Below, in pieces: positions 1,967-42,819 of a stretch of 48,053 bases of DNA (the first letter of the stretch is position 1; each line of letters opens with the position of its first letter). Origin of the DNA: Candidatus Omnitrophota bacterium (lineage in GTDB: Bacteria > Omnitrophota > Gorgyraeia > 1-14-0-20-64-10); NCBI GenBank assembly GCA_023248155.1, contig JAHFFE010000009.1, positions 1 to 48,053 of the forward strand. Direction: 5' to 3'. The position numbers and the translations under genes are program-made. The notes beneath the pieces are model-generated. The model was not told the DNA's origin and ran no database searches. It was given only the letters and a program-made list of their open reading frames with translations.

Positions 1967-3823
1967 CTAGTCCCCGATGATTCCGTCTTCCAGCCAGAGG
2001 TACTGATCCTTCAAAAGATCCTGCGATACGCGCCAGTTGTCGGCATCTTCCGGCAAATGCAGATTCTCAAACGAGATCTTGATCCGCGTGCGCGCCTGCT
2101 CGCAAAACAGGTCGGCCAACTCCGCCGCGTTGGCGGTTTTTGTATCGGCGGCTAACCGCGCCGCGTTCGAAAGCGTTGCCGACATCGCGAACAGTTCCAC
2201 GCCCACATCAACCAAACGGAATAACAGCATCTGCCGTTTCTGCAATTTCTCCTGATTCAAAATCATCTGATGAAACAGCGTGCGCGCCAAGCGCCGGCTG
2301 GTCCGCCCGATATACCGCCAGTGCTTGTGCAACTTTGGCGGAAGACCGGCTGGAATTCCAAAAAACGGCCGCGGAACCCACAGCAATGGATACCAGACCG
2401 CGTACGAAAGCCCCGCTTTCACAGCCGCTTTCATGCGGGCCGGCAACGGATTGCGCGGACTTAACACCGCCAGTACTTTCTGCAGATGCGGGTCAATCGC
2501 CTCGCGCGCCAAAAACAGCCGCATGATTTCGCTGGTTCCTTCAATAATCAAATTGATCCGCGCGTCGCGGAACATTCGCTCGACCGGCCAGTTCGGCTCG
2601 CCGCGCCCTGCCAGCGACGGCCCAGTTTCATACCCGCGCCCGCCGCGGATCTGCACCGTTTCATCCACAAGCTTCCATGCGCCCTCGGTACAAAATAGTT
2701 TCGCCATTGCCGCTTCGATCCGGATATCCTGCCCGCCTTTGTCAGCCCACGCCGACGCCAGCCAAGTGATCGATTCCATCGCGAACAGATGCGCGCTCAT
2801 CCAGCCCAGCTTCGACGCCACCGCCTCATGCTGACCCACCGGCTGGCCCCACTGCACGCGCTCGCGCGACCATTTTTTGGCGATCTGCAAACAGCGCTTC
2901 GACCCGCCCAGCGATCCGGCCGGCAGCGTTAACCGCCCCGTATTCAGCGTGGCCAGCGCCAGCTTCAACCCTTTACCTTCCCCTAAAATAATATTTTCTT
3001 TCGGGACGCGCACATTCTTAAACCGCAGCAGCCCGTTCTGAATTCCTTTCAGGCCCATGAAATCGCAGCGGTGCTCAACCTCAAACCCTTCCATACCCTT
3101 TTCAACGATAAACGCCGTAATCCGTTTGCGCGGCTTGCCCCGCACCACCTGATCGGGCGTGCGCGCCATCACCACCAGCACATCGGCTACCGGCCCGTTG
3201 GTGCACCACAATTTTTTGCCGTTGATCAAAAAGAAATCGCCGCCCTCCACCGGGGTGGCGGTCGTCGCCATGTTCGCCGGGTCCGAGCCAACATCCGGCT
3301 CCGTCAACGCAAACGCCGAAATCGCCCCCTTCGAAAACCGCGGCAGATATTTCTTCTTCTGTTCCTCGGTGCCGAACATCTTCAGCGGCTGCGGCACACC
3401 AATTGACTGGTGCGCCGAAAGCCATACTGCCGTTGACCCGCAATGGCTGGCAATCAGCTCAATTGCGCGGTTGTAATTAATCTGCGAGAAACCAAGGCCG
3501 CCATACTCCTTCGGAATTTTCATGCCGAAACAACCCAGCGCGGCCAGCCCCTGAATAACCGATGCCGGAACCTCACCCGTTTTGTCCACCTGATCGGCAT
3601 CCAGGTTAGTTTTCAGGAACGATGCCAGCTGGGCCAAGAACGCATCGCCGATCTTCTTATCGGCTTCGGATTGGGCTAAAAAGGGGAATATTAAGGAAGA
3701 GACTACCTTGCCGTGGTAAAGCCCCAAACCAAAACTGGGGTGTTCCCAGGCATCTTGCCGTGCTGATTCGACGATCTCCAACGCTTCCAGACTGCCTAAA
3801 ATACCGCCGTCTTTGTTATTCAT
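1967..3823 (-). CDS. Acyl-CoA dehydrogenase, long ACAD9/VLCAD-like form
   Basis: AFALTEPDVGSD, GKKLWCTNG, VQIRGGRGY, RINLIIEGTSEI motifs plus a C-terminal extension. Confidence 0.93.
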   Translation of the reverse strand: MNNKDGGILGSLEALEIVESARQDAWEHPSFGLGLYHGKVVSSLIFPFLAQSEADKKIGDAFLAQLASFLKTNLDADQVDKTGEVPASVIQGLAALGCFGMKIPKEYGGLGFSQINYNRAIELIASHCGSTAVWLSAHQSIGVPQPLKMFGTEEQKKKYLPRFSKGAISAFALTEPDVGSDPANMATTATPVEGGDFFLINGKKLWCTNGPVADVLVVMARTPDQVVRGKPRKRITAFIVEKGMEGFEVEHRCDFMGLKGIQNGLLRFKNVRVPKENIILGEGKGLKLALATLNTGRLTLPAGSLGGSKRCLQIAKKWSRERVQWGQPVGQHEAVASKLGWMSAHLFAMESITWLASAWADKGGQDIRIEAAMAKLFCTEGAWKLVDETVQIRGGRGYETGPSLAGRGEPNWPVERMFRDARINLIIEGTSEIMRLFLAREAIDPHLQKVLAVLSPRNPLPARMKAAVKAGLSYAVWYPLLWVPRPFFGIPAGLPPKLHKHWRYIGRTSRRLARTLFHQMILNQEKLQKRQMLLFRLVDVGVELFAMSATLSNAARLAADTKTANAAELADLFCEQARTRIKISFENLHLPEDADNWRVSQDLLKDQYLWLEDGIIGD

Positions 3824-4070: not shown

Positions 4071-7000
4071 ATGAAAAAAGAGGTTCTCCCCGATCCTCGA
4101 CGAAAGCATGGCCGCTGGCGATTTTCTTTTCGGTTCATTTCTGCTTTTACTCTCTTTGCCTTTGTTCTTCTTCAGTTAGGATTCATTCCTGCGCAAGCGG
4201 CTAACAACAACCTGCCCGACTGGCTGGCCGACGAACAGGACGCCTGGCTGAATATAAATCAGATGGATCAGCTGCAAAAAGCCGATGCCGCGCTGATCAC
4301 CCGCCTCAACGCGCTCAATGCCGCGCAACAGCAATTGACCACGCAATCGGCCGACGGCGTTAAAGCGCTGCATTTGGATGGCGCCGTAGCAGTAGCCAAA
4401 GACGCGCAGGGTAACGCGCTGCTCCTGCCCGAATTCAATGATCAACAGCAACTGCAAAACGGAACCCTTTTATTGGAAGACGGCACACTGCAAACCATCA
4501 CCAACGGCAAGGTCGCCCGGCAAAAAGACCTGTTCGGCAATGAAACAATCTTTTTAGAAGACGGCCGCGTCAATTATGAAATCGCCGCCGACGGGACCCG
4601 CTCTGATTATTCCTATCAGGAAGGGATCACCCGCACCACGCATTCGGTGACCGGCGACATTGTTCAGCAGTACGACACCCAAGGCAACCTGACGCGCGTT
4701 AGTTATCCGGACAACCGCGTTCTCAATTATGTTTCCAATTATCTTGCTTCCGAACGGACCGCCGACGGCTGGACCTATTCCTATACGCCCGCGCCGCAAA
4801 CGGACGGCACGGTGGTCGTCGATTTAACGCAGGCGGTTTCTCCGGCGGGGCTTACCTGCACGCTCTCCAACGGACAGATCACCGCGGCCCGCCTGCCCGA
4901 CGGCACACAACTGAGCAATGTTACTCTGACGGATTCCGGCACGGTGTTTGCGGCTAATCTCTTAATGCCGGATGGCACGCGGCAGACAATCACCGCCGGC
5001 TCGGTGAATTCGGTGACGCTGCCGGATGGACGGCTGCTCAATTACTCCAACGGATTTCTGAGCAGTATCGTGCAGAACGGGCAACCGACGGCCCTTTCCT
5101 ATACAACCGCCGCCGGCGGCGCTCTGGCGACGATCACCGCGCAAGATTCCACCGGCACGCGCAAAACATACGACTCCGCCGGCAAATTAATTTCGATCAC
5201 GCGCGCGGATGGAACGACCGAGATTTTTACCGGAACGAATTACTCCCGCTGGCGCTACAACGATCCGTTTAATGTCACCGTGGCGCGCGACTGGACAGTT
5301 TCGACAAAAGTCGCCGTTGCCGGCGGCAGCCTAACGCTCACCGGCACCGGGAGCAACCTCAACACCAACGCGCTCTACAACAAATCGATTGCCCGTACAA
5401 CCGCCGGAGAAATCAGCTTCACGGTTCCCTTTAAAGTCAGCATTTCCAACAGCCAGAGCACGCTGGCCGTCGAAAACGGACTGGCCGGAACCAGTTACCG
5501 CCGGCTGGAACTACTGCATAACGGTTCACAACTGGTCATCCGCATCTGGGAAGGCACGCGCGTCACGCAAAAAGTGGTGGCCGTTTCCAGCACAACTGTC
5601 AATGCCTGGTACAATGTCAAATTTTCTGCCACCACCGCCGGAACTTCGGTCACCGTCTGGAAAGAGGGGGCCGCCGTTCCAGCCAAACCCAATTTTACCT
5701 GGACATGGAACACCGGCACTGTGCGGTTCCATGCCTGGGTAAAAACCGGATCGCTTCAGCTGAATTCCCTCTCGCTCGAAACCCCCGCGCCGGCACGGGA
5801 AACGCTGGATCTGTTTGCGCGGTTGCGAACACCGGCCAACAATTACGCCGTGACCGCTCCGGCCCGCAAAAAAGAACAGTCGATTTACAACGCCGACGGA
5901 ACTCTCAAAGAAACCACGCGCACCGACGGAACGCGAACCCGGTTCGACCATGGAATGCCGGTTGAAATCACCGATCCCGACGGCAAAGTCACGCAGATCA
6001 CCGCTGAAATGTCCGGCACAGACCTGGAAGGTTTTTCAATCGCCCGCGACGGAATCACCCGACTCTACTCAACCCATGGAGAACTCTCCGGATTAACGCT
6101 GGCCGACAAATCCGAACTGGCATTTGACGGCAGTTCTATCAGCGGCGTTACACTCGCCGACGACACTCAGGTGATCAACGGTGTTTACGAAAACAACGCG
6201 CTGGTCAGCGGAACCGTACTCTACGCCGACGGTAAAAAGGTCCGCTACGCCGGCAAACAAATCGCCGAGGCCACTCTGCCCGACGGAACCATTATTGCTT
6301 ATACCAACGACAAACCGGTCCACCTCACACTGACCTCCGGAGAAAATTACCGGCTCCGGCAAAATGCCAACTCCACCTGGAGCGCCGAACTGGAAGATTC
6401 ACCTGCTCTTTCCCAAAACGATATTTTAATCACCCTCAATTATTCTTCAGACTGGCAGCTGCTCTCGGCCGATCGCGTAGATAACGCGCATCTTGTTTAT
6501 TCCAATGGAAAACTTTCTACGCTCACGCAAGCCGACGGGCTGGTCATCTCGTACGCGTATGATTCCGCCGGACGGCTCTTAAGCACCGTCGCCGTCAGCC
6601 CGGACGCTTCGCAACCCTCTATCCGCAGCGAATACGCCTACGACAAAATCCGAAAAGTCTATCAGGTGCCAGGCACCAACGAAGTTTTGGTGTATTCCTA
6701 TTCGTATGAATTCACCGGTTCCGGCGACGAGATCACCGCCATTCGCGAAGAAACAACCGGCCTGATTAAACGCTACCTCGCCGGCCAGTTGATTTCGCAG
6801 ACCGACGCCGACGGCGCCGTCACCGCGTACGAATATACCGATAACGCGTCCGGATGGAATGACCCGCTGGCCGATATTTCGCTGGCTTACCAAACACTGC
6901 CCGACGGCGCCAAAGCGGTCTATCAGAAAATCGGCGCCAACCCCGTCCGGCAATGGAAACTGACCAAATTTATTTTGAGCGACGGAACAGAAATCTCCGA

Positions 7001-10000
7001 CCCGAACCAGTCCGGTTATCAATCGCGGGCAGATCAAGCCGCCATTCCAACCGACCGCCGCTCCATCCTGCGCCTGGAACGAACCGGGGTACTGAAAAGG
7101 GTGCCAGGTTTAAACCTGGCACCCAACACAGAATTGTCATCCTCGAATTTTTCTATCGAGGATCCTCCCGCTTCGCGCATCGCCCGTTCCACGCTCACCT
7201 ATCAGGGGCAGCAGCGCGGCGAGTTCACATTCCAATACGAAGGCGATTTAACCAAAATCACCGATGACGGCGGAACCACGCGCGTCTACAACGCGGCCAA
7301 TGAACTGCTGTCCGTGCAAACGCCCGACGGGCAAACCTGGAACTACCTCACCGTCACCGACATTGACGGTTCTACGGTCCGCGTCGCCGATTTAACCGCC
7401 GTCGATCATCCCGACGGCGCGCGCGCCGAATATTCCGGCAGTTCGCTGACGCGCGTCTACCTTCCCGACGGAACCTCGTTTAAAAACCTGGTCTGGAATG
7501 ACGACGGCCGGCTGGTTTCCGCCGTTCAGGTTTCCATTGATGGAATTGAAACGGCACTTCCCAATCCGAACGGATCGGCCGCGCAGTCATGGACCATCGG
7601 CGCCGATAAAACCGGCTCGTTCGTCACCGTCGGACATGACGGCGGCGATATCGTAAAACATGCGCAGTCGTTCGTTCTGCCCGGCTACGGCCAGCGCCAA
7701 ACCAACAGCATCAATCTATTCGTCCGCGCCGATACGCTCGGCAGTCCGGCCGGCGGCCTGCGCGTAAAATTATTCGCCGATTCGCAAGAGAGCCCATCGG
7801 GCGACGCGCTCGCCGAGAGTGTCATCACCAACCCAACGCTGGGAGCGTGGAACCAATTTCAGTTTGGGTCCAACATTCAACTGACCGCCGGACAACGGTA
7901 CTGGATCACCGTCGAATATCTCGGACCGACCGAACTCTCCACCGCCTACCGGCTGGGCGCTTCATTCGAGAATTCTTACGCCGACGGTTCTGAACTCAAC
8001 CGCTATGTCTCGTCTCAGCGGTGGCTGGCCGGTTCGCGCGCGCTCGACCTAGCATTTCAATTAACCGCTTCCGGGCAAGCGCTTTCGCTGGAAGGAATTG
8101 AAACGCAATTAGCTCCCTACCGGATGAACGGCGACACCTTGACCGAGCAGGAATTCGACGGATCGGGCATTTTGCTCACGCAGAGCCGCTCCGACGGACA
8201 GGTTACCTTCTTTAACGCGCGCGGCCAGATTGAAACAATCACCGACGCCGAAGGCCGCCTGCAAACCGAATATATTTATACCGGCGCCGGTGATTTAGCC
8301 GAAGTGCGGATGCCCGGCGTACTCACGCAAATCGCCGAAGAAGCCGCGCTCGCCCGAGCTGATCTCGAGTCGCGATCCGCGCAGGCGCTTCAACTGCTGG
8401 CCGAACAGCGCGGAGTCGCCGCCGGGCAGATCAACCAGCAGATCGGTTCGGCGCGCGCCCAGTTGGCCGTGCAGGAATCAGAATTGATCGGGCAGTTAAA
8501 CGCGCTCGACAACACCAAAGCCAGCGGAAAAGCCGGCCGCAGACAGAAAAACAACGGCATGGACCAACTGCGCGGCGGCATCCAGCAGGTGCAAAGCGCT
8601 CAGCAAACACTCGACCAGCAGTACGCGCAGATGCTCGGCGAACTTGACAGCCAGATCAATCAGATCCGCCTGCAGATTGACACCGAAACCGAAAAAGCGT
8701 TTACGCAAATTCAACAAAGCCAGACCGACGCCGCTAAAGCGATGCTCAAACAGATCATCACGCCGGTGGTCTACACCGAGTTCCGCCGCGGCCTGGGCCG
8801 GGACCCCGACGCCGCCGAGTGGAGCCGCATCGTCGATCCGATCTACGACCAAATGAAAGATCAGCCGGCCGCGCATCTCGATTTACCGGCCATCCGCGCG
8901 TTGATCGAACAAAGCGCCGACCGGCAAGCCCGCGTCGAAGAAGTTTTGCAAATTCGCGCGCAGGTCCGCGACTGGTTCACCAACTATTTGCCATCGGGAA
9001 TAGACCCGAATTCCCTGTCATTGCGAGCGAACGAAGCAATCTCATCTCTCGACCTCACCCCCGACGACATCGTTGCCCTTTCCGCCGACGAGGTCGAACA
9101 GATTCTCACCTACCTTGACAACAGTTCATTGCATTTTGGGCAATCGGCTTATTTAGCGCTTAAAGAACTGTTGTCGCATTACACAACAGAAATCCCCGCG
9201 CACCAGCTGGCGACCGAGGCGATCGTCATCGACATCCTTGGCGGCGTCATTACGCCAAAAACCGAAGGTGATCTGGAACTTTCGCTTTACGCGCTCGGCA
9301 AAGTGGGCACTCTGCACAACTTGCCGCTGATCGCTTCCAAAATTTCATTTGAAGAACTGCGCGGCATGACCACTCTGCCCGGAGTGAAATCCACCATCGC
9401 CTTTGCCAATCCCAACGGAATGGCCTATAACGCAGCCGGCAATACCGCCTATGTTACCCATTTCGGCAATGGCACCTACCGCGCGCTCTCTGAAGTTGAT
9501 CTAGCTACCAATGCCATTCTGCGCACCGTTGTTCTGCCCGGCCAGCCCGAGGCGTACACCGGCCCGATCGCCGCCAGCGCCGATGGGCAATGGCTGGCCG
9601 TCGGAACCGTTTCCTACGCCGGCAAGCCGGACCAAACTGTGTTTTTAATCAACGCGCATACTTTTGAGGTCGCGGCTTCCTTCAACGGGTTCGGCGCCGT
9701 GGCTACCGTCGCTTTCTCACCCGACAACTCAACACTCTACGCCGCCGACAGTTTCACGCGCGCGTTAACCCGCGTGAACCTGGCCACACAAACAAAAATC
9801 GGTTCATTGCCACTGCCGAATGATTTCGCGAACCCAATGCTGGTCTTCTCGCCCAACGGACAAACGCTTTATGTCGGTTCCGAATCGACCGGACGGCTGG
9901 CCGTCGTTAATCTGGCGAATCCTTCCGCGCCCATTCAATTCATCAGCACCGGCGTAGCCCCGCGCGCGATGGCGCTGCATGCCAACGGAACCGACCTTTA

Positions 10001-13000
10001 TCTGGTCAGCCATAACACCGGAATGCTCACCCGGTTCAACACCACTACCTGGCAAAAAACCGGCGAGGTCTATGTCGGCTGGGGACCCCAGCGCGTTTCA
10101 TTCTCATCCGACGGCTCCAAAGCGCTGGTCACCACCTACTACAACGGAGAACTGGCCGTCGTCGATATCGCCTCATTCACCCGCACGCAGATTGTTACCG
10201 TCGGCGGAGGCGCCACGGAGATACTGGTCGACCACAACGGCCGCGAAATTTTGGTGACTGGCGGCGGAGGGGTCAGCGTGGTCGTGCTCGACGCCCCCGG
10301 CCCGGCCATCGCCCATGTCAACGGCAACCATTACATTCTTATTCTATCGATCGCGCCCGACGGGACCATCACCTACCGCGAACCCAACCAGGGCCCCAAC
10401 GGAACGACGCTCACCATGTCTGAAGCGCAATTCCGCAACATTTGGGACGGCGCCATTCTTTCAGCGCGCGCACCGCCCAAACCGTCGTCGGTCCTCTCCG
10501 TTCAAGAAGCCAAATCAATCACCGGCTCCTTCTTCCCGCTTCTCTTCCTCGCGTTCGCGGCCATCGCCTCCAGCATCGGCACCGCCATCGGAGCCGTGAT
10601 CGCAACAATCGCCGGCGTCTTATCAGCCGTTGCCGGAGTAATCGGCGCCGTCTTCAGCGCTATCGGCGGGTTCATCAGCGGCCTCGGAACATTCTTCTCA
10701 GGTTTCGGGTCGTTCTTCTCCGGATTTGGATTTCTTGGTCAAGGACTTGGCGCCATTTTCTCAGGACATATTCTCGCCGGGCTCTCAACCATCGGCGGCG
10801 CGCTGATGAGCACGATTATCCCCGGCGGACTGCTTCAACTTGGCATCAGCGTGGGAGTCAGCAAGGGACTGGAAGCGCTGGGTGTCAGTCCGATGATCTC
10901 CTCGCTGGCAGGCGCGTTTGTATCCGGCGGCATCGGAGGTATGCTTAATCCTGCACAAGGAATCAGCATGTTTACCAGCGCAGTCAGCGGAGCGCTTACT
11001 TCAACCGCTATTGCCGGTACGCAAATTGGCCTGACTTCCATCGGATTAGATCCTGCTCTGGCCTCCATCGCTTCCATTGGCGTAGGAGCAATCACGAGTA
11101 GTTTTACGGCTGGTGTTGCACAAATCAACAGTGCCGGAAATGTTGTCAACGATGCCGTTGGCAATCCAATTATTCTTCACGGTACACAGGCGCTGAGCCA
11201 AACTTTCAGAACATCACTGGCTCCTACCCTGGCCGGAGAACTTGGGTTTTATGGCATCCAGAAACTCGGTGAATCAATTGGGCTCGATCCGCGCATTTCC
11301 CAATTAGCCGGTATGCCAATTAAATCGGCCATCACAAATACTTTTAGTGCCGGATCAACTTCTCAATCAATCACACACGCTTTTGGGCAAGGACTAATCA
11401 ACGGAGCCGTTTCTATCGGACTGCAAACCGGCATTGACGCGGTTGGGTTAGACCCACTGGCCGGGGCACTCGCCAGCCGCGCGATCACCGGCGCGTTAGC
11501 CGGAGCGATTAATCCGAATAGAAATATTTTCGAAGGTATCGGCCGCGCGTACCAGGAAAGCGTCGGCAACTTCTCTCTGTTTCCAACACCGCCGGACCCC
11601 AAAGATCCACGGTTTACCACCACGCTAACCAACGGTCAGCGGGTTTGGAACCAGCAGGCATATAATCAAGCAATTGGCCAGTACGAGGCCTCCCGCCCGG
11701 TCTGGATGGCGCAATCAATCGCCAAAACCAACGACTTCGCGCAAGAAATCAGAACCAACGGATTCAGCACGGCTCTTGAGAATTACGCCACTTCCATCTT
11801 CCATCGCGATTCCGTCGAATCGCTCGTGCAATCGTTCGGGTCCATTAAAGCGGCCATTGAAGAAAAACTTCGCCCGGAAAATATCCACAATGTCACGCTC
11901 TCCGACGGAACCATCGCTAAAGAACTACTGCTTTCCGAGGAAGATATGCGCATCGCGCTTCTACTGGCAGGAGACCCCACCGCCGGCTATTCCCTTCTGG
12001 GTGTGACCGAAGATGATTTAGAGCAGCGCTACACCGATTACCGGGTCAATCGCCAAACGCATGAGGCCGGCATGGTCAGCGGCACCATCCGGAGAACCTA
12101 TCGCTCCACAGCCCCTGATGGAACTACCGTCACTGCACAGTTCCTGGAAGAAATCTCCGCCGGAGGGGTCACCAAGGTCACGGTCTACGGACAAGACGGC
12201 CAGCTTTACACCATCACCCCCAACAATTTTCAGGATGTGCGCCTCAACGCCGATGGAACAATTCGAGATGGATTAGTCACAACCATATCTGGAGACACAC
12301 TTAAGTTTAAGAACAATTTGCTCGCAGAAAGCCATTCCCGACAAAAAATCGATTTCCCAATAAATTCAACTGATCAGCTTATTCCAGAAACTGGACTTCT
12401 TACTTCCGACTTGCAAGATCTGTGGATCGAAATCAAAACTGCCACAGGACAGTTATCAACCATTTCTCTGGTGGAAGACAACCCTTCCTCAAACAGTTGG
12501 TCGAAAGTTCTTCTTAAGGATCTTCCAGGGGCAGAACAATACAGTAATGTATCAATGGCACTAAGGAATTCCACGCTCCGACAAAGAATCGAAGACCGCT
12601 TCGAACAATTGACGAACCTGCTGGGAGGCGTGGGCTGGTATACGGAGGAACAGTTACAAACCAGAAAAGAAAATTACCTAAGAATACTCTCTGAACTTGC
12701 ACAACAAGGTAGCCTTGATGGCTTAATTATTGCCTTTTCCGACCTATCTGATATTGGGCTTGCAGTTAAAGCAGGCGAGTTTATTACAGATCAAAATGAT
12801 ATAGACACAGTCATTGATCTATTGGGGAAATCTCCCGTTGGTGCAGTAACACAGGGAGTCATAGACAGAATATCCACCGGGAAACCATTTGAAATGTATC
12901 AACATATAGGATTAATCAAAGAACTAGAACTGTCTGATGGAACACGGCGCCTTTATGTCCTCGAAATTAATCCAGATGGCCTGGGGATACCACGCTTAAC

Positions 13001-13400
13001 GCCTTTAGAGCAGAAATTATATCCTTCTCCCTTGGCTAATTCCTATCAGAACATTGTGATCCTTCAAGCAAATGAAAGCGAGAAAGCAGCCAAAGCCGCA
13101 AGAAGTTTGGTTAACACTTATTTTATCAAGCACGATCTCGATAGTGCCCAAGCAGGCGAAGTAATATGGTCTATTCCAACAGCACCAAAATACGATTGGC
13201 TCCAAATAGCGGGTCTACCCAGAATACCCGGCGCAAACCGAGAAACTTGTGCCAGTTTTATTTTTCATGGGTTTGAGTTAGCAGGGTTAGTGCCACATAA
13301 TTTTCCTACAGATCTCTTATCCAGAGTTTCACCACAAGAAATTGTTGATAGTGGTAACAATTGGGGAAAAGACATTGCCAACTCAGACGGAAGCTGGTAG
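4071..13400 (+). CDS. Giant secreted multidomain protein, 3109 aa: YD/RHS-like repeats, lectin-like inserts, coiled coil, split C39-like domain, YVTN beta-propeller, glycine-zipper region, C-terminal permuted papain-like (YiiX/NlpC-P60) domain
   Basis: Signal peptide ending AQA; many YDxxGxL/xDG hairpin repeats; AFSPD/FSPNG/FSSDG propeller blades; AHVNGNHYILI...REPN...FRNIWDG C39-like half; YQHIGLI...YDW...ETCASF...VSPQEI C-terminal motif order. Confidence 0.9.
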   Translation: MKKEVLPDPRRKHGRWRFSFRFISAFTLFAFVLLQLGFIPAQAANNNLPDWLADEQDAWLNINQMDQLQKADAALITRLNALNAAQQQLTTQSADGVKALHLDGAVAVAKDAQGNALLLPEFNDQQQLQNGTLLLEDGTLQTITNGKVARQKDLFGNETIFLEDGRVNYEIAADGTRSDYSYQEGITRTTHSVTGDIVQQYDTQGNLTRVSYPDNRVLNYVSNYLASERTADGWTYSYTPAPQTDGTVVVDLTQAVSPAGLTCTLSNGQITAARLPDGTQLSNVTLTDSGTVFAANLLMPDGTRQTITAGSVNSVTLPDGRLLNYSNGFLSSIVQNGQPTALSYTTAAGGALATITAQDSTGTRKTYDSAGKLISITRADGTTEIFTGTNYSRWRYNDPFNVTVARDWTVSTKVAVAGGSLTLTGTGSNLNTNALYNKSIARTTAGEISFTVPFKVSISNSQSTLAVENGLAGTSYRRLELLHNGSQLVIRIWEGTRVTQKVVAVSSTTVNAWYNVKFSATTAGTSVTVWKEGAAVPAKPNFTWTWNTGTVRFHAWVKTGSLQLNSLSLETPAPARETLDLFARLRTPANNYAVTAPARKKEQSIYNADGTLKETTRTDGTRTRFDHGMPVEITDPDGKVTQITAEMSGTDLEGFSIARDGITRLYSTHGELSGLTLADKSELAFDGSSISGVTLADDTQVINGVYENNALVSGTVLYADGKKVRYAGKQIAEATLPDGTIIAYTNDKPVHLTLTSGENYRLRQNANSTWSAELEDSPALSQNDILITLNYSSDWQLLSADRVDNAHLVYSNGKLSTLTQADGLVISYAYDSAGRLLSTVAVSPDASQPSIRSEYAYDKIRKVYQVPGTNEVLVYSYSYEFTGSGDEITAIREETTGLIKRYLAGQLISQTDADGAVTAYEYTDNASGWNDPLADISLAYQTLPDGAKAVYQKIGANPVRQWKLTKFILSDGTEISDPNQSGYQSRADQAAIPTDRRSILRLERTGVLKRVPGLNLAPNTELSSSNFSIEDPPASRIARSTLTYQGQQRGEFTFQYEGDLTKITDDGGTTRVYNAANELLSVQTPDGQTWNYLTVTDIDGSTVRVADLTAVDHPDGARAEYSGSSLTRVYLPDGTSFKNLVWNDDGRLVSAVQVSIDGIETALPNPNGSAAQSWTIGADKTGSFVTVGHDGGDIVKHAQSFVLPGYGQRQTNSINLFVRADTLGSPAGGLRVKLFADSQESPSGDALAESVITNPTLGAWNQFQFGSNIQLTAGQRYWITVEYLGPTELSTAYRLGASFENSYADGSELNRYVSSQRWLAGSRALDLAFQLTASGQALSLEGIETQLAPYRMNGDTLTEQEFDGSGILLTQSRSDGQVTFFNARGQIETITDAEGRLQTEYIYTGAGDLAEVRMPGVLTQIAEEAALARADLESRSAQALQLLAEQRGVAAGQINQQIGSARAQLAVQESELIGQLNALDNTKASGKAGRRQKNNGMDQLRGGIQQVQSAQQTLDQQYAQMLGELDSQINQIRLQIDTETEKAFTQIQQSQTDAAKAMLKQIITPVVYTEFRRGLGRDPDAAEWSRIVDPIYDQMKDQPAAHLDLPAIRALIEQSADRQARVEEVLQIRAQVRDWFTNYLPSGIDPNSLSLRANEAISSLDLTPDDIVALSADEVEQILTYLDNSSLHFGQSAYLALKELLSHYTTEIPAHQLATEAIVIDILGGVITPKTEGDLELSLYALGKVGTLHNLPLIASKISFEELRGMTTLPGVKSTIAFANPNGMAYNAAGNTAYVTHFGNGTYRALSEVDLATNAILRTVVLPGQPEAYTGPIAASADGQWLAVGTVSYAGKPDQTVFLINAHTFEVAASFNGFGAVATVAFSPDNSTLYAADSFTRALTRVNLATQTKIGSLPLPNDFANPMLVFSPNGQTLYVGSESTGRLAVVNLANPSAPIQFISTGVAPRAMALHANGTDLYLVSHNTGMLTRFNTTTWQKTGEVYVGWGPQRVSFSSDGSKALVTTYYNGELAVVDIASFTRTQIVTVGGGATEILVDHNGREILVTGGGGVSVVVLDAPGPAIAHVNGNHYILILSIAPDGTITYREPNQGPNGTTLTMSEAQFRNIWDGAILSARAPPKPSSVLSVQEAKSITGSFFPLLFLAFAAIASSIGTAIGAVIATIAGVLSAVAGVIGAVFSAIGGFISGLGTFFSGFGSFFSGFGFLGQGLGAIFSGHILAGLSTIGGALMSTIIPGGLLQLGISVGVSKGLEALGVSPMISSLAGAFVSGGIGGMLNPAQGISMFTSAVSGALTSTAIAGTQIGLTSIGLDPALASIASIGVGAITSSFTAGVAQINSAGNVVNDAVGNPIILHGTQALSQTFRTSLAPTLAGELGFYGIQKLGESIGLDPRISQLAGMPIKSAITNTFSAGSTSQSITHAFGQGLINGAVSIGLQTGIDAVGLDPLAGALASRAITGALAGAINPNRNIFEGIGRAYQESVGNFSLFPTPPDPKDPRFTTTLTNGQRVWNQQAYNQAIGQYEASRPVWMAQSIAKTNDFAQEIRTNGFSTALENYATSIFHRDSVESLVQSFGSIKAAIEEKLRPENIHNVTLSDGTIAKELLLSEEDMRIALLLAGDPTAGYSLLGVTEDDLEQRYTDYRVNRQTHEAGMVSGTIRRTYRSTAPDGTTVTAQFLEEISAGGVTKVTVYGQDGQLYTITPNNFQDVRLNADGTIRDGLVTTISGDTLKFKNNLLAESHSRQKIDFPINSTDQLIPETGLLTSDLQDLWIEIKTATGQLSTISLVEDNPSSNSWSKVLLKDLPGAEQYSNVSMALRNSTLRQRIEDRFEQLTNLLGGVGWYTEEQLQTRKENYLRILSELAQQGSLDGLIIAFSDLSDIGLAVKAGEFITDQNDIDTVIDLLGKSPVGAVTQGVIDRISTGKPFEMYQHIGLIKELELSDGTRRLYVLEINPDGLGIPRLTPLEQKLYPSPLANSYQNIVILQANESEKAAKAARSLVNTYFIKHDLDSAQAGEVIWSIPTAPKYDWLQIAGLPRIPGANRETCASFIFHGFELAGLVPHNFPTDLLSRVSPQEIVDSGNNWGKDIANSDGSW
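6665..6677. repeat. Short palindrome GGTGCCAGGCACC inside the giant gene (encodes VPGT)
   Basis: 6-bp arms with a 1-nt centre; same arms as the 7099-7124 palindrome. Confidence 0.45.
7099..7124. repeat. Perfect 26-bp palindrome inside the giant gene
   Basis: GGGTGCCAGGTTTAAACCTGGCACCC equals its own reverse complement. Confidence 0.8.
7132..7164. repeat. REP-like hairpin inside the giant gene, paralog of 20476-20508
   Basis: AATTGTCAT-CCTCGA-N9-TCGAGG-ATC versus the intergenic AATTGTCAT-CCCCGA-N9-TCGGGG-ATC. Confidence 0.75.
9017..9043. repeat. REP/RPE-like element inside the giant gene
   Basis: GTCATTGCGAGCGAACGAAGCAATCTC, 27 nt, ATTGC/GCAAT stem, read in frame as SLRANEAI. Confidence 0.65.
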
Positions 13401-13410
13401 CGTAAAATAT

Positions 13411-14448
13411 ATGCTCAAATGGCTTTATAGAATTTTCTTGCTTGGGATTCTCGCCGGATCTTGCGGACTCTTTCTTTATAACGCCCTTGCGCAAACTCCA
13501 GATCAACCTCCAGACTCATTTACTATAGAAACCAATATCCAGGGAACTCTTGTTTTCAGTGCTTTCCGGAAACCTCATGGGCATACCATGAGGTTATGGG
13601 TCATAAAAGACCAAAACCTCTATGAGTTAGGACTCAATGGGGTACAACCAATCATATCTCGAGATAGTAAGACTCTGGTTTTTCAAAGTAACGGAGAATT
13701 ACAGCGATTCAGTTTTAAGTTGAGGAAAGGCGAAATTTTACCTATCTCAAAAATTACAACGCTATTTGATTATGATGTGTCACCTGACGGGAAAGAGATT
13801 TGTTTTGTCACTAGTGAAATCAGTCAATCCAAGGGTCTCTATGGATGCAATTTGCACATCGGAAATCTAAATGGCACAAATATTCGTTGTTTAACCCAAT
13901 TTTCTCCGACTGATACCGTTGGGGGTGTTAATAATCCAAAGTGGTCTCCAGCCGGAGATTCTATTTTATTTACTGCGTTTGATCCTACCGAGACTAAGGG
14001 GAAAAGGAACGTTCGATTATGGGTTATTAAGAAAGATGGAACGGGATTACGGAAGATTCATAATGAAATATCAAATTACAGTGTTAATGAGCCGGCCTGG
14101 TCTCCTGACGGAAAGAAAGTAGCTTTTGTAGAAAGGCCATCAAATCCACAGCAGGAAGGATACGACTATGAAGTTTATGTCTGTGATGCTGATGGTTCGA
14201 ATGTTAAACGCCTAACTAATAACGACTGGAATGAGCGCGAACCTGTTTTCTCTCCGGATGGAAAACAAATTTGCTTCGTATCCTACCGCCATCAAAAAGT
14301 CGGTATGGCTGGCTTTGGTTCAGAACTCTACCTGATTAATGCAGACGGAACCAACGAGCAGCGGCTTACTCCTCCAGAAAAAGTACCCGGTGCTTTAGGT
14401 GGCTGGGCGGAAGATCATAGTCCAACTTGGGGACCTTCAAGTGATTAG
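13411..14448 (+). CDS. Secreted TolB-like (PD40/WD40) beta-propeller protein
   Basis: Repeats VSPDGK, PKWSPAG, PAWSPDGKK, PVFSPDGKQ, PTWGP; signal peptide from ATG 13411. Confidence 0.85.
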   Translation: MLKWLYRIFLLGILAGSCGLFLYNALAQTPDQPPDSFTIETNIQGTLVFSAFRKPHGHTMRLWVIKDQNLYELGLNGVQPIISRDSKTLVFQSNGELQRFSFKLRKGEILPISKITTLFDYDVSPDGKEICFVTSEISQSKGLYGCNLHIGNLNGTNIRCLTQFSPTDTVGGVNNPKWSPAGDSILFTAFDPTETKGKRNVRLWVIKKDGTGLRKIHNEISNYSVNEPAWSPDGKKVAFVERPSNPQQEGYDYEVYVCDADGSNVKRLTNNDWNEREPVFSPDGKQICFVSYRHQKVGMAGFGSELYLINADGTNEQRLTPPEKVPGALGGWAEDHSPTWGPSSD

Positions 14449-15589
14449 ACCGCCAACGGTACCGGTTTACCGTTTTTTAATGGCTCTCTTTTTCCTGCTG
14501 GCTTCCATTCAAAATACGGTGTATGCCTTGGAGGATACGGCCGTTGCTGATACATATGATGCCCAATACACTGCTGGATTGGCTTACCTCAAACAGGATA
14601 GCGATGAGGACTTGGACAAAGCTATTATCCATTTTAAAAAAGCAGCAAATCTATCACCTGGCGATAGTGGCGCTTATATAAATCTCGGCGTGGCATACGG
14701 TCGTAAAGGACGAATTGAAGATGCGGTCATCGCTTTGCAACGATCACTCGAAATAGAATCAAACAATCCCAACGCTCTTTTAAACCTTGGGACAGTGTAT
14801 GAACAAGATGGCTGGTATAAGGCAGCGGAAGTTTGCTTCCGAGACGCGCAGACATTGGCTCCTAATGCACCTATTGTAAAAGATTTTTTTTCCAGGAAAA
14901 CGCTTGGGTCAGCCTCAAAAGAAGACACCAGCGTTAAAGCAGATACCTTGATTGAGCGGGGCACTAAATTCTTTATGGCCGGAAACTTTGAAAAAGCTCT
15001 CGGATTCTATAAAGAAGCTGCTGAAGTGAATCGTTCTTCGCCCGCTCCTCGCATCAACATTGGTAATACATACCTGAAAATGGATAGGCTTGACGAAGCT
15101 GGTCAAACCTATGAACTTGCGGTAAAACTCGCTCCGCGAAACGCACGTGTCCGATACTGTCTAGGCAACTACTATGTAGCAAAGAAACTCTGGAAAGAGG
15201 CGATTCGTGAGTTGGAGCGATCTGAAGTATTGGGATCCAGCCATGTTAGCCTTTACTCTGGTCTTGGAAGGGCCTATTTGCTTGAAAAAGAATTCCCGAA
15301 GGCGGAAGTAGCCTTAAACAAACTTCTTAAACTCGACCCTACCAATACTCAGGGATGGTACATGTTGGGTATTACTTATATTCAACTCAAAAATGGGTGG
15401 AAAGCGCGCGAGGCTTTTAAGAAATGCATAGAAAATGATCCGAAGTTCATCGCGGCCCATTATGAACTAGGATGGCTCTATGCAGGGTATGATCCATCCT
15501 ATGCCCGTAAAGAATTTGAAACGGTACTTCAATTGGATCCATCTCATGTGGAAGCTCGCAAGGAATTAGAAAAACTCAATCGGCGATAA
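14441..15589 (+). CDS. Secreted tetratricopeptide-repeat protein
   Basis: About ten TPR units (AYINLGVAY, ALLNLGTVY, GWYMLGITY, AHYELGWLY). Start GTG 14441 or ATG 14480. Confidence 0.85.
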   Translation: MIRPPTVPVYRFLMALFFLLASIQNTVYALEDTAVADTYDAQYTAGLAYLKQDSDEDLDKAIIHFKKAANLSPGDSGAYINLGVAYGRKGRIEDAVIALQRSLEIESNNPNALLNLGTVYEQDGWYKAAEVCFRDAQTLAPNAPIVKDFFSRKTLGSASKEDTSVKADTLIERGTKFFMAGNFEKALGFYKEAAEVNRSSPAPRINIGNTYLKMDRLDEAGQTYELAVKLAPRNARVRYCLGNYYVAKKLWKEAIRELERSEVLGSSHVSLYSGLGRAYLLEKEFPKAEVALNKLLKLDPTNTQGWYMLGITYIQLKNGWKAREAFKKCIENDPKFIAAHYELGWLYAGYDPSYARKEFETVLQLDPSHVEARKELEKLNRR

Positions 15590-15647
15590 TCTTATGCACA
15601 CCAACGGTACCAGGTTCCAAGAGTATAGGCAAAAAGGAGGATAGTTC

Positions 15648-17234
15648 TTGAAAATCCAGATTGCTTCCCTTCTACTAATAACTACTCTTCTCGCTGGCTG
15701 TGCCACGGTCAATTCAGTACGACCGGATGGTTCTGCTAATTTTGTAAAGCGGTCTGGTTTGTCCGATGATGTTAAAAATTTGTGGCTTACAGCAAAGATT
15801 ATTGATGCCAAAAGTGCTTTCAGCACAAAAGATCAGAAAGTTACCTGGTGGGCTGAGTTCCAGCCCATGTCTTTCGTTACACCACAGCAATTTTCAGCTC
15901 GGTGGTATGCTCCCGATGGCTCTCTCTTTACCGAAACCCAAGGCAGAACTTTCGATACCAACGCCATGTACGGCACCTGCTCTCTGCCTATTAGCGGTAG
16001 CCAAGCCGCGCACTACTCAGGGATATGGCGTGTGGATGTGTTTTGGCGTAACGCTAAGATCGATTCGCAGTCATTCTCCATCTCGGACCCAACACTCCAG
16101 AGCGATTCCTTGCCGGCTCCTTCGTCTGACTCACCAAAAGAAGAAGGACCATGGACAACCTATCTCGAATCCAATCAGGGATTACAAGTACGCTACCCAT
16201 CTTCCTGGTTCAGAAAAGAGCACTCCAACCCTCCTGTATATCAACTATTCTTATCAAGAGAGAAGGTTACCAAGCCGGGGGATATATTCCAGGTTGGGAT
16301 ATCTATCCTGCAGATTCAAAACGCCTCCGCACAACTTAACCTAAAAACAAGTGACCCTGTCACTGCAGCTTCACTTCTACTAGAGTCCTACATCAAAAAT
16401 TGCCCGGGTCTCATGAAAAAACACGCGGTCAACACACCAGTCCGCATTGGAAACTCCGAGGGTTATCTTTCTGATCTTGAAACACGAGATGCTCTCGGAA
16501 AAAATGTCCGCCTCTGGCTCGTTTACTTGCTGCAAGATGATGTTCTTACAAATCTAATTTTTGAGTGTCCGAGAGAAGAGTTTTCAAAATACGAACCTAT
16601 TTTTCGTCAATTTCTAGAGGAATCAAACATACCCGGCTCTACACAACATGCGTCTCTGGTTCAAGAGCCATTTCATTTAACACGAGAGGTGTCGGATGAA
16701 GATGTGCTCATCAAGGAACTCGATCTTTCCGTGAGTCGTCCTGCCAACTGGATCGTGCTTCAATTTGATGATCCTCACCATTTGGTGTCATTCTGCAAGC
16801 AAAATCCCCCAAGTCCAACAGAACCGGTGATCACAGCATCGCTTCTTGCTCGCATTAACAAATCTATACCTGACCTCGCCCGTGCAGTTATTATGGAAAA
16901 AGCTCGCCTTCTCAAGGGAAGCACACTCATACAGATAGGAAATACCAGACCTGAGAAAATTGGCGACTGGAAGGGCTTTAAGGAAACCTATGTTTTCTCC
17001 ATTGAGGGAACTTCTGTGGGGTTTGTGTATTTCTTCATCCCGACAAGAGATTTTCTCTATGTATTCACTTACTCAAATAAATTCGAATCCCTGAGTGAGT
17101 ATCTGGAGGTTTTCAATGCTGTTATTGAAAAATCTCGATTCGAAAACGAGAGAACTAAGCTTCCAGAAGGTTTGGTCAAAAGCATTACCGAAGCACAACT
17201 TCGGATTGCAACGGAGAAAAAGACCAGCGACTAA
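15648..17234 (+). CDS. Lipoprotein with an Ig-like N-terminal domain and two probable PsbP/Mog1p-like domains
   Basis: AGGAGG Shine-Dalgarno, TTG start, LLAG|C lipobox; WTTY...VRYPSSW and LSVSRPANW repeats. Confidence 0.75.
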   Translation: MKIQIASLLLITTLLAGCATVNSVRPDGSANFVKRSGLSDDVKNLWLTAKIIDAKSAFSTKDQKVTWWAEFQPMSFVTPQQFSARWYAPDGSLFTETQGRTFDTNAMYGTCSLPISGSQAAHYSGIWRVDVFWRNAKIDSQSFSISDPTLQSDSLPAPSSDSPKEEGPWTTYLESNQGLQVRYPSSWFRKEHSNPPVYQLFLSREKVTKPGDIFQVGISILQIQNASAQLNLKTSDPVTAASLLLESYIKNCPGLMKKHAVNTPVRIGNSEGYLSDLETRDALGKNVRLWLVYLLQDDVLTNLIFECPREEFSKYEPIFRQFLEESNIPGSTQHASLVQEPFHLTREVSDEDVLIKELDLSVSRPANWIVLQFDDPHHLVSFCKQNPPSPTEPVITASLLARINKSIPDLARAVIMEKARLLKGSTLIQIGNTRPEKIGDWKGFKETYVFSIEGTSVGFVYFFIPTRDFLYVFTYSNKFESLSEYLEVFNAVIEKSRFENERTKLPEGLVKSITEAQLRIATEKKTSD

Positions 17235-17326
17235 CGATGCCAAAGTACCAAAAAACGGTACCCTGCATTCGATACAGATCGAAATTTAAGCAGGCAAAAG
17301 AATACAATTCAAAAGAGGAGATCGTT

Positions 17327-18034
17327 ATGAAAGCTTGGCTGAAATTGACAGCAATGTTTTTTGGCATTGCGTTGTTATCCGGATGTTCAACGGGCTTAAC
17401 CCTGCCCCACGGTCCGGACATCTATTCCCTCTCCATGAAACCAAACGCCCCGAAGGTAGTGGTCGCCCGAGTAGCAGATAACCGTCAAGATAAACAGCAC
17501 CTTGGTTCCATCAGCGCGCTACAGGTACAAATGAAAGCGGACCCTACTGAATTAGTCGCCAAAGAAATGGTCGCGGCGCTGTACGATCAGGATGTGAATG
17601 GCGTATTGGGACGGGTTTCCGCGACCGATTCGCCAGACACACTGGCTGCAGCCGCGGCGGAAAACAATGCGGACGGTGTGTTGGTCGTTTCTATTCAAGC
17701 ACTCGCAATTGCCTCGTTCGACGCGCTGATGGACCCTCCGACAGCCACCGCAACGCTGACCGCTACTCTCTACGACAGCGCCGGCCAGAAACTCGACAGC
17801 GATTCCGCCATGGGACAGGTACAGCGACGAATTAATACTTTTGTGGCTGAGAAATCAACCGGTGAACTGCTCAATGAGGCAATCCGCGCGGCAACTCAAA
17901 AACTGGCCGCCAGCAGTATTATTAGCACCCTTAAAAATAAGGCGGCCGCACCAGAAACAGAGCCGGAAGCCGCTACTACAGAAACGCAAACGACAACCAC
18001 AACCGAAACAACCACGGAGGCCCCTGCTCAATGA
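17327..18034 (+). CDS. Lipoprotein (possibly YajG-like) with a Thr/Glu-rich tail
   Basis: GAGGAG Shine-Dalgarno before ATG 17327, LLSG|C lipobox, VVARVADNR motif. Confidence 0.75.
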   Translation: MKAWLKLTAMFFGIALLSGCSTGLTLPHGPDIYSLSMKPNAPKVVVARVADNRQDKQHLGSISALQVQMKADPTELVAKEMVAALYDQDVNGVLGRVSATDSPDTLAAAAAENNADGVLVVSIQALAIASFDALMDPPTATATLTATLYDSAGQKLDSDSAMGQVQRRINTFVAEKSTGELLNEAIRAATQKLAASSIISTLKNKAAAPETEPEAATTETQTTTTTETTTEAPAQ

Positions 18035-18438
18035 ATACTTTCTCGCGCTTCACGGCTTTTGCGCTTATTGCCGTAATGCTGTCCGGTTGTTCGGTGTTTA
18101 TGGCCGCCAAACAACCGCCTAAAAAAGATCTGTCCGTGCTCGAGATTGGCACGCCGCGCAGCCGGGTGATATCAGAATTAGGCCAGCCGGCCGCCAGCGA
18201 TACCAAAGACGGCAAGCGGGTGGATATGTTCGTGTTTCAGCAGGGCTACAGCAAGGGAGCAAAAACAGGCCGGGCCCTTTTTCATGGAGCGGCCGATGTG
18301 ATGACGCTGGGTCTGTGGGAAGTTGTCGGCACCCCAACCGAAATGGTTTTCGACGGAGCGCATATGTCTTATGAAGTAACCTACGACGCGGATGACCGAA
18401 TCGAAAATGTCGCTAACCTTTCCCGGCAGGAACAATAA
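18031..18438 (+). CDS. Small lipoprotein (SmpA/OmlA-like IGxxRxxVxxxLGxP motif)
   Basis: MLSG|C lipobox, IGTPRSRVISELGQP, ATGA overlap with the previous gene. Confidence 0.78.
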   Translation: MNTFSRFTAFALIAVMLSGCSVFMAAKQPPKKDLSVLEIGTPRSRVISELGQPAASDTKDGKRVDMFVFQQGYSKGAKTGRALFHGAADVMTLGLWEVVGTPTEMVFDGAHMSYEVTYDADDRIENVANLSRQEQ

Positions 18439-18930
18439 ATGAGGATGCTTCTGCCCAAAAAATCCATCGGTTTGCTTTTAATCATCGTGGTGTTGTTGAC
18501 CGGCTGCGCCAGCATTATCCATGGGTCGCGGCAGGATATCCGCGTAGTCTCAAACCCGTCGGGCGCGGTGGTACGGGTTAACCTGAATAACCAGGCCACC
18601 ACTACCCCCGGCATGCTCACCTTGAGCCGCAAAGAGATTGCTTATGCGCTGACTTTCGAGAAAGAGGGTTATAAACCGGTCGAGGTTTCATTGCGGCGCA
18701 CGGTGGACGGCTGGCTGTTCGGGAATATCATTTTCGGAGGCATCATCGGCATCGTGATTGACTTCGCATCGGGGTCGGCTTATAAATTAACGCCGGGAGA
18801 AGTCGAAATCGCTTTGGGTGAGATGTCGGCATCGGCTAAAAAATCGGGCGGCCTGGTTGTGTTTGCCGATTTACAGCAGCTGCCGAGCTCGCTCAAAAAC
18901 AAAATCTCCGAGAAGGACCGGCTTGTCTAG
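18439..18930 (+). CDS. PEGA-domain lipoprotein
   Basis: LLTG|C lipobox, VVSNPSGAVV, TTP, EKEGY and a glycine-rich GNIIFGGIIGIVID segment. Confidence 0.8.
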   Translation: MRMLLPKKSIGLLLIIVVLLTGCASIIHGSRQDIRVVSNPSGAVVRVNLNNQATTTPGMLTLSRKEIAYALTFEKEGYKPVEVSLRRTVDGWLFGNIIFGGIIGIVIDFASGSAYKLTPGEVEIALGEMSASAKKSGGLVVFADLQQLPSSLKNKISEKDRLV

Positions 18931-41439: not shown

Positions 41440-41442
41440 GCT

Positions 41443-42807: not shown

Positions 42808-42819
42808 TATTTCCTCCTC

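Follow-up and report, generated by a model that had tools for sequence, protein, structure and literature searches.

Introduction

The C39 domains of PCAT/AMS systems act on substrates of the form L(-12)..E(-8)..[IV](-4).G(-2)[A/S](-1), and the leader bound to LahT150 has been described as a helix from -4 to -11 followed by extended P3-P1 residues (in the part of PMC6363468 compared here). A C39 domain also occurs inside a polymorphic toxin, StbD-CT of Citrobacter rodentium, where it was reported to cut its own linker in cis after Gly-Gly and to be active only when reduced (10.64898/2026.05.07.723447, in the compared part). In this work we analysed a window of 48,053 nucleotides (nt), that is, positions 1 to 48,053 of contig JAHFFE010000009.1 (assembly GCA_023248155.1) of a Candidatus Omnitrophota bacterium, in which a giant open reading frame (ORF) of 3109 amino acids (aa), called P0001, encodes a C39-like domain with serine at the presumed nucleophile position and, farther along the same chain, a motif that resembles a double-glycine leader.

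Releasing peptidases of polymorphic toxins comprise HINT, ZU5, PrsW, caspase and PVC-metallopeptidase domains (Zhang et al., 2012, PMC3482391); in the part of that survey compared here, C39 figures as a toxin domain (Tox-PL-C39) and not as a releasing peptidase, and neither a serine form nor a cis leader motif is mentioned. C39 peptidase-like domains have been noted on giant Omnitrophota proteins, with autocatalytic cutting proposed as a possibility, and the same preprint raised the question of whether these giants exist as single chains or as cut pieces (West-Roberts et al., 2023, 10.1101/2023.11.21.568195), while a second preprint reported a 24-protein PF03412 architecture group (10.64898/2026.06.07.730766). 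The compared text of the two preprints mentions neither a cut site nor a Cys-to-Ser change and draws no connection with Gly-rich segments or polymorphic tips, and a limited literature search found no description of the serine form, of a downstream cis site or of a link to a Gly-rich segment and polymorphic tips.

The C39-like domain of P0001 has the same predicted fold as the C39 domains of PCAT1, ComA and LahT, whose His and acid strands align by sequence with those of its family, and the substrate positions given above are present as well, with a short helix and extended P3-P1 residues in the models. Unlike in PCAT/AMS proteins, Ser stands here for Cys, the oxyanion Gln is missing, Glu is often found for Asp and position -7 is not hydrophobic; the domain is probably extracytoplasmic, holds a beta-propeller in a loop and is not fused to an ATP-binding cassette (ABC) transporter, and the putative substrate lies downstream in the same chain (residue 2142 of 3109) and not in the N-terminal leader of a small peptide. 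P0001 shares with the CdiA-like StbD-CT (8ssk), its best structural match, a C39 domain inside a polymorphic toxin, whereas StbD-CT, as portrayed in the compared part of its report, has a C39 domain that is itself the toxin, carries Cys, is redox-controlled and has its site upstream; P0001 has Ser, a downstream site and a variable tip. As in the toxins with known releasing peptidases, the peptidase-like domain stands between a repeat-rich N-terminal part with RHS/YD repeats and an exchangeable putative toxin, and the tip is compositionally distinct.

Layout of P0001 and fold of the split C39-like domain

The features of P0001, in window coordinates, are the following.

4071..13400, + strand: giant ORF P0001, 3109 aa, open throughout, with RHS_repeat and YD repeat matches
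4071..4199, + strand: probable Sec signal peptide or anchor, residues 1-43 (hydropathy and reading by eye)
9018..9380, + strand: N-terminal half of the C39-like domain, residues ~1650-1770, with the invariant H-F-G-x-S-A (alignment of relatives, models)
9144-9146, + strand: Ser1692 (TCG) at the nucleophile position
9381..10292, + strand: 7-bladed YVTN-type beta-propeller, residues ~1771-2074, in a loop of the C39-like domain (Pfam/NCBIfam, model)
10293..10478, + strand: C-terminal half of the C39-like domain, residues 2075-2136 (Pfam, PCAT1 alignment, family tally)
10329-10331, + strand: His2087
10380-10382, + strand: Glu2104, in place of the C39 Asp
10494..10529, + strand: leader-like motif L(-12)SVQE(-8)AKSI(-4)TG(-2)S(-1), residues 2142-2153 (conservation, models)
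between 10529 and 10530: putative scissile bond S2153|F2154
10530..11570, + strand: Gly/Ala/Ser-rich hydrophobic region, residues 2154-2500 (hydropathy, composition)
11571..12305, + strand: conserved post-membrane core, residues ~2501-2745, common to most family members (homology extent, clustering)
12306..13397, + strand: variable C-terminal tip of low guanine-cytosine (GC) content, residues ~2746-3109 (clustering, GC)

The N-terminus of P0001, read by eye and by hydropathy with no signal-peptide predictor, has a basic start, a hydrophobic stretch at residues 18-44 and then AQA|A. A Pfam scan matched RHS_repeat in seven stretches (E 1.1e-25) and beta-propeller families at residues ~1770-2065, and an NCBIfam scan matched YD repeats and a propeller family. 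These features are best explained by a Sec-exported, polymorphic-toxin-like giant protein with YD/RHS repeats. The canonical Rhs Asp-protease motif DPxG[LWFI], which in self-cleaving Rhs/YD toxins stands at the end of the YD shell, had no match anywhere in P0001, which agrees with the earlier proposal of a non-RHS route to release; canonical Rhs self-cleavage was rejected, since P0001 lacks this motif although YD/RHS repeats are present.

The initial annotation had placed a C39-like protease domain, a leader and a cargo in one polypeptide, and the three parts indeed lie in the single 3109-aa ORF. Its description of the domain as C39-like was borne out for the fold and failed for the catalytic residue, Ser being found at the nucleophile place, a point overlooked earlier. 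As the only Cys residues of P0001 are 263 and 3060, the C39-like domain has no cysteine.

Pfam Peptidase_C39 (PF03412) matched the C-terminal half alone, at residues 2074-2132 (hmmscan, E 1.1e-3). An AlphaFold-type model of residues 1650-2200, made with a 24-row alignment, reached a mean predicted local distance difference test (pLDDT) of 90.1 and a predicted template modelling score (pTM) of 0.79, and consisted of two alpha/beta halves around the 7-bladed propeller, an insert of ~305 aa in P0001. A fold search with this model retrieved propellers only (1l0q_A, E 8.5e-19). Because the propeller insert dominates such a search, the propeller-free module of a relative, P0004, which is 57% identical to P0001 over the module, was modelled in its place (pLDDT 85.4, pTM 0.84). 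With this model the best match in the PDB was StbD-CT (8ssk, E 6.3e-6), and 9l5u, deposited as a papain-like cysteine protease toxin, ranked fourth (E 9.9e-6). PCAT1 (7n87, E 3.1e-5; also 4ry2), LahT150 (6mpz, E 2.9e-4), ComA (5xe8, E 6.1e-4; also 3k8u) and the C39-like domain (CLD) of HlyB (3zua, E 5e-3; also 8dck) were matched as well, the top C39 matches lying between E 6e-6 and 2e-3, with TM-scores of 0.66-0.72 when normalised to isolated domains. The family profile described below also matched PCAT1 by sequence (E 1.1e-4), the N-H and [DE]-P of the family aligning with the PCAT1 His and Asp strands. The top PDB sequence match of that profile, the chloroplast PsbY polyprotein (E 2.2e-6 overall), was regarded as spurious; it consisted of three repeats with i-Evalues of 4.4-14 each, covering profile positions 7-55 only. 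As modelled, then, the split domain has a papain-like C39 fold, in line with the prediction made for it earlier.

When residues 1620-2200 served as the query, 22 proteins between 1.7 and 5.1 thousand residues long were obtained; 16 of these (P0001 included) have the module, and six matched by the propeller only; a precomputed PF03412 match was available for 7 of the 15 module-bearing homologues. Family profile A1 was built from 13 propeller-free modules. Column tallies were then taken over 155 collected module-bearing proteins, multi-module proteins being merged, and a second time over 80 loci from species-representative genomes, selected from 106 confirmed stretches. More than one stretch was matched in 19 proteins, and in our own reading about ten of the 155 module-bearing proteins (P0001 included) have an insert of 260-440 aa at the same loop.

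The leader-like motif and its conservation

The C-terminal half of the domain ends with FRNIWDGAILSARAPP (residues 2121-2136), and six residues farther on begins LSVQEAKSITGS (residues 2142-2153, nt 10494-10529), followed directly by FFPLL (residues 2154-2158, to nt 10544); the coordinates thus confirm the order of domain, motif and FFPLL first reported. P0001 has a single match to the strict pattern L-x3-E-x3-[IVL]-x-G-[GAS], compared with 0.08 expected by chance per shuffled copy of the protein and 0.0026 per given stretch of 100 aa.

All 16 module proteins keep H-F-G-[QH]-S-A, A-H-x-x-G-N-H and Y-x-[DE]-P in the domain and, after it, L-x3-E-x3-[IV]-x-G-[AS] followed by F. In the family tally Gly(-2) is invariant (149/149), and P1 is small throughout (A 95, S 50, G 3, T 1). 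Position -4 is I, V or L in 148/149 (I 102, V 43, L 3, T 1), position -12 is L, I, M or V in 150/151 (L 116, I 26, M 5, V 3, Y 1) and position -8 is E in 81 and Q in 36 of 150. The tally of 80 loci gave the same picture, with Gly(-2) in 75/75 and P1 being A in 57 and S in 18. A looser form of the motif was found 35-135 residues past the His in 145/158 modules, and in 3311 of 20,000 random 100-aa windows of the same proteins (16.6%). Conservation of the motif after C39 domains in homologues, which had been proposed as a check, was therefore found, and the relatives' sequences settle that it goes beyond chance.

The distance from the His to Gly(-2) is also constrained (median 70 residues, range 58-104), and 55 residues separate His2087 from the start of the leader helix in P0001. 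The 145 motifs are followed by a hydrophobic 20-mer in 110 cases, by a Trp-rich sequence of G-W-W type in 19, by polar sequence in ~10 and by moderately hydrophobic sequence in the remaining half-dozen. Because polar sequence also follows the motif, for instance in a 45,037-aa ORF of the same genome, it is the protease domain, and not the membrane segment, that the motif accompanies, which is what one would expect of a cognate substrate. The 19 sites of G-W-W type form a subfamily (proteins P0089-P0158) whose segment past the site is an amphipathic G-W-W-x-x-F-W-K-G-I-V-x-F-F-Q-K-I-I-A-P instead of a Gly-rich start.

In both models residues -12 to -2 have a pLDDT of ~90-96 and form a two-turn helix from -10 to -5, and values drop below 50 exactly from P1 on. 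The modelled geometry matches that of the leader bound to LahT150. A complex prediction of residues 1650-2136 with residues 2137-2175 scored 0.30 against a mark of 0.32; as it was run without controls it gave no verdict and was counted neither way.

Serine and the other catalytic positions

The presumed nucleophile column holds S in 144, C in 8 and V in 1 of 153 sequences, and S in 79 and C in 1 of the 80 loci. One of the Cys-bearing relatives, P0099, has DFGQCAF at this place and G-G at the end of its motif; further examples are P0157 (NFARCSV) and modules of multi-module proteins (V-I-N-C-A). In the P0004 model the corresponding Ser50 is the first or second residue of a long helix (49-61), and the catalytic Cys of LahT is located on helix alpha1 (PMC6363468, compared part). 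The spacing from Ser to the end of the helix equals, in our own reading, that of the canonical Q-C-G-P-A-A-L-E... domain of a 356-aa lipoprotein encoded in the same genome. Codon usage at this column (TCC 34, TCG 34, TCA 5, TCT 5, AGT 1; Cys codon TGC 2) argues that serine is held by selection, since all four TCN codons and AGT are in use and Ser and Cys are one base apart. The catalytic His is kept in 154/155 proteins and the acid in 152/155 (D 83, E 69), the acid of P0001 being Glu2104. Judged from these columns, an active Ser-His-acid enzyme accounts for the residues better than a dead domain does, though this is no proof of activity.

It is plausible, by analogy with StbD-CT and its dependence on reduction, that a serine would suit an oxidising compartment and let the domain work beyond the reducing cytoplasm. 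Should the serine prove to be the nucleophile, the family would be a case in which a papain-like C39 peptidase has switched from Cys to Ser in nature.

The fragment past the putative site

A cut after residue 2153 would leave 956 residues, as initially calculated. Across the family the fragment past the site is 872 aa long in the median (n=149), with 91 fragments between 800 and 1000 aa. The Gly/Ala-rich hydrophobic region previously noted is real: the 111 residues from 2154 to 2264 carry no charge, and residues 2154-2500 contain 11 GxxxG motifs, compared with 0.8 expected from the rest of P0001. Windows of 19 aa with a mean Kyte-Doolittle hydropathy of at least 1.6 occurred, outside the N-terminal signal, only within residues 2147-2209, and the hydrophobic segment is read as beginning at F2154. 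A helical hairpin at residues 2154-2209, followed by four units ending in G-[LV]-[DS]-P, is probable. No Pfam family was found for the Gly-rich region and the core, and their matches in the Atlas were confined to unnamed phage clusters, with scores of 0.83-0.84.

The stretch from +100 to +400 past the site falls into one cluster for 118/121 proteins, and the last 300 aa of the 121 proteins fall into 38 clusters, the largest with 67 members; the cluster of P0001 otherwise holds P0007 alone. Homology of P0001 to most relatives stops at about residue 2750, and its last 250 aa are common to 1/160 other collected proteins (P0007) and to 0/399 other sampled genomes of the phylum. A conserved body with exchangeable C-terminal tips is the mark of polymorphic toxins, and on sequence clustering it is the arrangement of this family. 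The claim of a bacteriocin-like cargo did not hold in the usual sense of the term: neither a small peptide with an N-terminal leader nor an ABC-fused C39 (PF03412, own genome) was found, and the cargo has the appearance of a polymorphic toxin's C-terminal portion, with exchangeable tips.

The terminal enzyme domain that had been proposed was left unconfirmed. No Pfam family matched the tip even at E 10, its best PDB sequence match (E 0.05) was to a ribosomal protein and is not meaningful, and no homologue of similar length (137-438 aa) was found. What remains is a His (~residue 3033) ahead of Cys3060, a His...Cys pair that is kept in P0001, P0007 and the distant P0004 (blastp E 2e-5), and a weak lead in the Atlas to Peptidase_C92 (rank 10, score 0.92, the family being on 23% of cluster members). 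The order of His before Cys suggests a putative permuted papain-like hydrolase.

Proposed mechanism and alternatives

The reading that we favour, with moderate confidence, is that a Ser-His-Glu variant of the C39 peptidase cuts P0001 in cis after G2152-S2153 and frees a membrane-inserting toxin fragment of 956 aa. According to this proposal, the protein would be exported by Sec, so as to leave the YD-repeat body and the serine-C39 domain outside the cytoplasm. Ser1692, His2087 and Glu2104 would stand for the Cys, His and Asp of double-glycine leader peptidases, and the leader-like helix 2142-2151 would fold back into the groove of its own domain, where the chain may be cut in cis after Gly2152-Ser2153. 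The new N-terminus, FFPLLFLAF..., would open a Gly-zipper-rich hydrophobic hairpin, and this hairpin could then enter a membrane, taking with it the conserved core together with the tip, which is exchangeable and may be a His/Cys hydrolase. If this is true, C39 would have to be counted with the peptidases that release polymorphic toxins, and a large reservoir of unexplored toxin tips is indicated.

Several points weigh against this mechanism. Beside the fold, the conserved residues, the motif at its fixed position, the polymorphism of the tip and the compositional island, all of which were observed, stand serine catalysis, cleavage, action in cis over action in trans, membrane insertion and toxicity of the tip, which we infer; contact of the helix with the canonical groove and the reach of Ser to P1 are likewise what we infer. 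The C39 score of P0001, 19.2 bits by hmmscan, is below the Pfam cut-off of 22 (22.1 bits in the genome search). The equivalence of Ser and Cys rests on column sharing, helix position and spacing, and hhalign aligned the family only weakly with the canonical C39 domain encoded in the same genome (probability 16%, E 0.0016), with a 4-residue gap at the Ser. Six residues before the nucleophile the oxyanion Gln is absent and a Ser is found there. One limited literature search found no description of a serine nucleophile in a C39 or papain-like fold. Position -7 is rarely hydrophobic (A 63, T 28, E 20, Q 15, S 12, L 7 of 149), whereas classical leaders are hydrophobic there, and LahT150 cleaved poorly once Leu-7 had been replaced by Lys or Asp (PMC6363468, compared part). 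The protein would also have to cross the outer membrane. Finally, Cys-less C39-like domains are known as non-catalytic binders, and one of them, the HlyB CLD 3zua, is among the fold matches.

This last point leads to a serious though unlikely alternative, in which the C39-like domain has lost its Cys as in HlyB-type CLDs, is non-catalytic and merely holds the leader helix, the chain staying uncut. Its part would be that of an intramolecular chaperone or clamp, by which the hydrophobic Gly-rich segment stays soluble or folded back while the protein is exported. The HlyB CLD is fused to an ABC exporter, and HlyB substrates are not known to have a double-glycine leader. P0001 resembles HlyB in having a C39 fold without catalytic Cys (3zua, E 5e-3, and 8dck among the matches), and the modelled packing of the leader helix on the domain, the non-hydrophobic -7 and the missing oxyanion Gln are equally what a clamp would predict. 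But only the Cys is replaced here, His, acid and the G-[AS] site being near-invariant, and mere binding needs neither the invariant Gly(-2) with a small P1 (149/149) nor a near-invariant Ser/Cys, His and Asp/Glu. The natural exchange of Ser and Cys within the column (8 Cys, one by a G-G site) is typical of a nucleophile position, and the module also stands ahead of polar, non-membrane sequence, where there is nothing hydrophobic to shield.

An extension of the cis-cutting mechanism, put forward tentatively and rather doubtful, would make the serine-C39 domain a priming protease. Its cut would bare a Gly/Ala-rich hydrophobic N-terminus (FFPLLFLAFAAIASSIG...) that may work in the manner of a viral fusion peptide or a colicin-type hydrophobic hairpin, and this would drive the ~350-aa Gly-zipper region into the membrane of a prey cell and deliver interchangeable enzyme tips; the module, found twice in the 45,037-aa ORF, would then cut giant Omnitrophota ORFs, and the giants would be polyproteins.

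It is quite improbable that the motif is cut in trans by another enzyme, either the 356-aa lipoprotein with C39 and TPR-like repeats encoded on contig C15 or a neighbouring giant copy, while the serine domain only presents the site. The same genome does encode this Cys-bearing C39 lipoprotein, and the motif fits the classical double-glycine consensus of such enzymes (as given in the compared part of PMC6363468). The motif, however, keeps a fixed distance from the His (median 70, range 58-104) and occurs with the module in 145/158, and for this reason a pairing in cis fits. That the motif is an ordinary junction of ectodomain and membrane anchor with no role in processing, its leader likeness coming by descent of a conserved linker, is very improbable: small residues are common before transmembrane helices, but the motif is kept where no hydrophobic segment follows, occurs once in P0001 versus 0.08 expected, and is conserved at -12, -8, -4, -2 and -1, the positions that define C39 substrates (PMC6363468, compared part).

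Distribution and other modules of the same genome

In a comparison of profile A1 with 1.84 billion proteins, 907 cluster representatives were obtained at E <= 1e-3, 393 at <= 1e-10 and 190 at <= 1e-30. The related loci come nearly all from Omnitrophota metagenome-assembled genomes; some are labelled uncultured Planctomycetia, and one, Cys-bearing, Clostridia. Module matches at E <= 1e-10 were present in 212/400 sampled genomes of the phylum, in 188/340 of those of good quality and in 143/282 genera. A conserved candidate site (after G-[A/S]) and a candidate enzyme with three named residues, which roughly every second sampled genome of the phylum possesses, are thereby defined, and because of this the self-processing of giant proteins is now directly testable.

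The genome that holds the window measures 1.9 Mb and is 98.5% complete. PF03412 matched ORFs of 45,037, 356 and 3110 aa in it, and no ABC-fused C39 was among these matches. A bacteriocin precursor exported by a PCAT was rejected as an identity for P0001, there being no ABC-fused C39 (PF03412) in its own genome and the leader being internal, at residue 2142.

The 45,037-aa ORF on contig C9 (loci L081 and L082) contains two serine-type modules with SLHFG[VI]SAF, each with L-x-x-x-x-L-x-L-I-R-G-[AS] behind it and, beyond that, acidic repeats or polar sequence of another kind, which suggests that these sites are internal processing sites of a polyprotein. The 356-aa lipoprotein (contig C15, locus L083, nt 1342-2409) combines a canonical Q-C-G C39 domain with TPR-like repeats and is, within the cell that encodes P0001, a candidate for an exported C39 peptidase of the cysteine type. 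A third giant ORF, of 3069 aa, gave a weaker, partial module match (contig C23:10269-10505, E 3.4e-8, profile positions 111-192).

Low-GC island and neighbouring genes

Near nt 12,300 the GC content declines from 0.55 to 0.43, to rise again near 17,400, and because of this course the tip and the three genes downstream of P0001 form one island. The three genes are the following.

13411-14448, + strand: PD40 beta-propeller with a signal sequence
14399-15589, + strand: TPR protein
15648-17234, + strand: 528-aa lipoprotein

By eye all three (13411..17234) carry export signals, and their position and composition, from which alone we derive a role, make them candidate immunity or accessory genes.

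Just past the island, at 17237-18930, are three small lipoprotein genes with lipoboxes LLSGC, MLSGC and LLTGC, the last of them with a PEGA domain. Four tandem paralogous histidine kinases of 534-543 aa with a seven-transmembrane N-terminal region occupy 20564-27025 and 29204-31456, a stretch of low GC (0.40-0.47), with a ketoacyl synthase and an ICMT-like methyltransferase between them and a fifth kinase, with a GAF domain, after them. A transglutaminase-like protein is encoded at 31475-32776 on the minus strand. The run of ORFs at 33956-48053 on the same strand starts with ftsA and ftsQ, the two genes scanned in it, and we suspect that it is a cell-division and cell-wall cluster.

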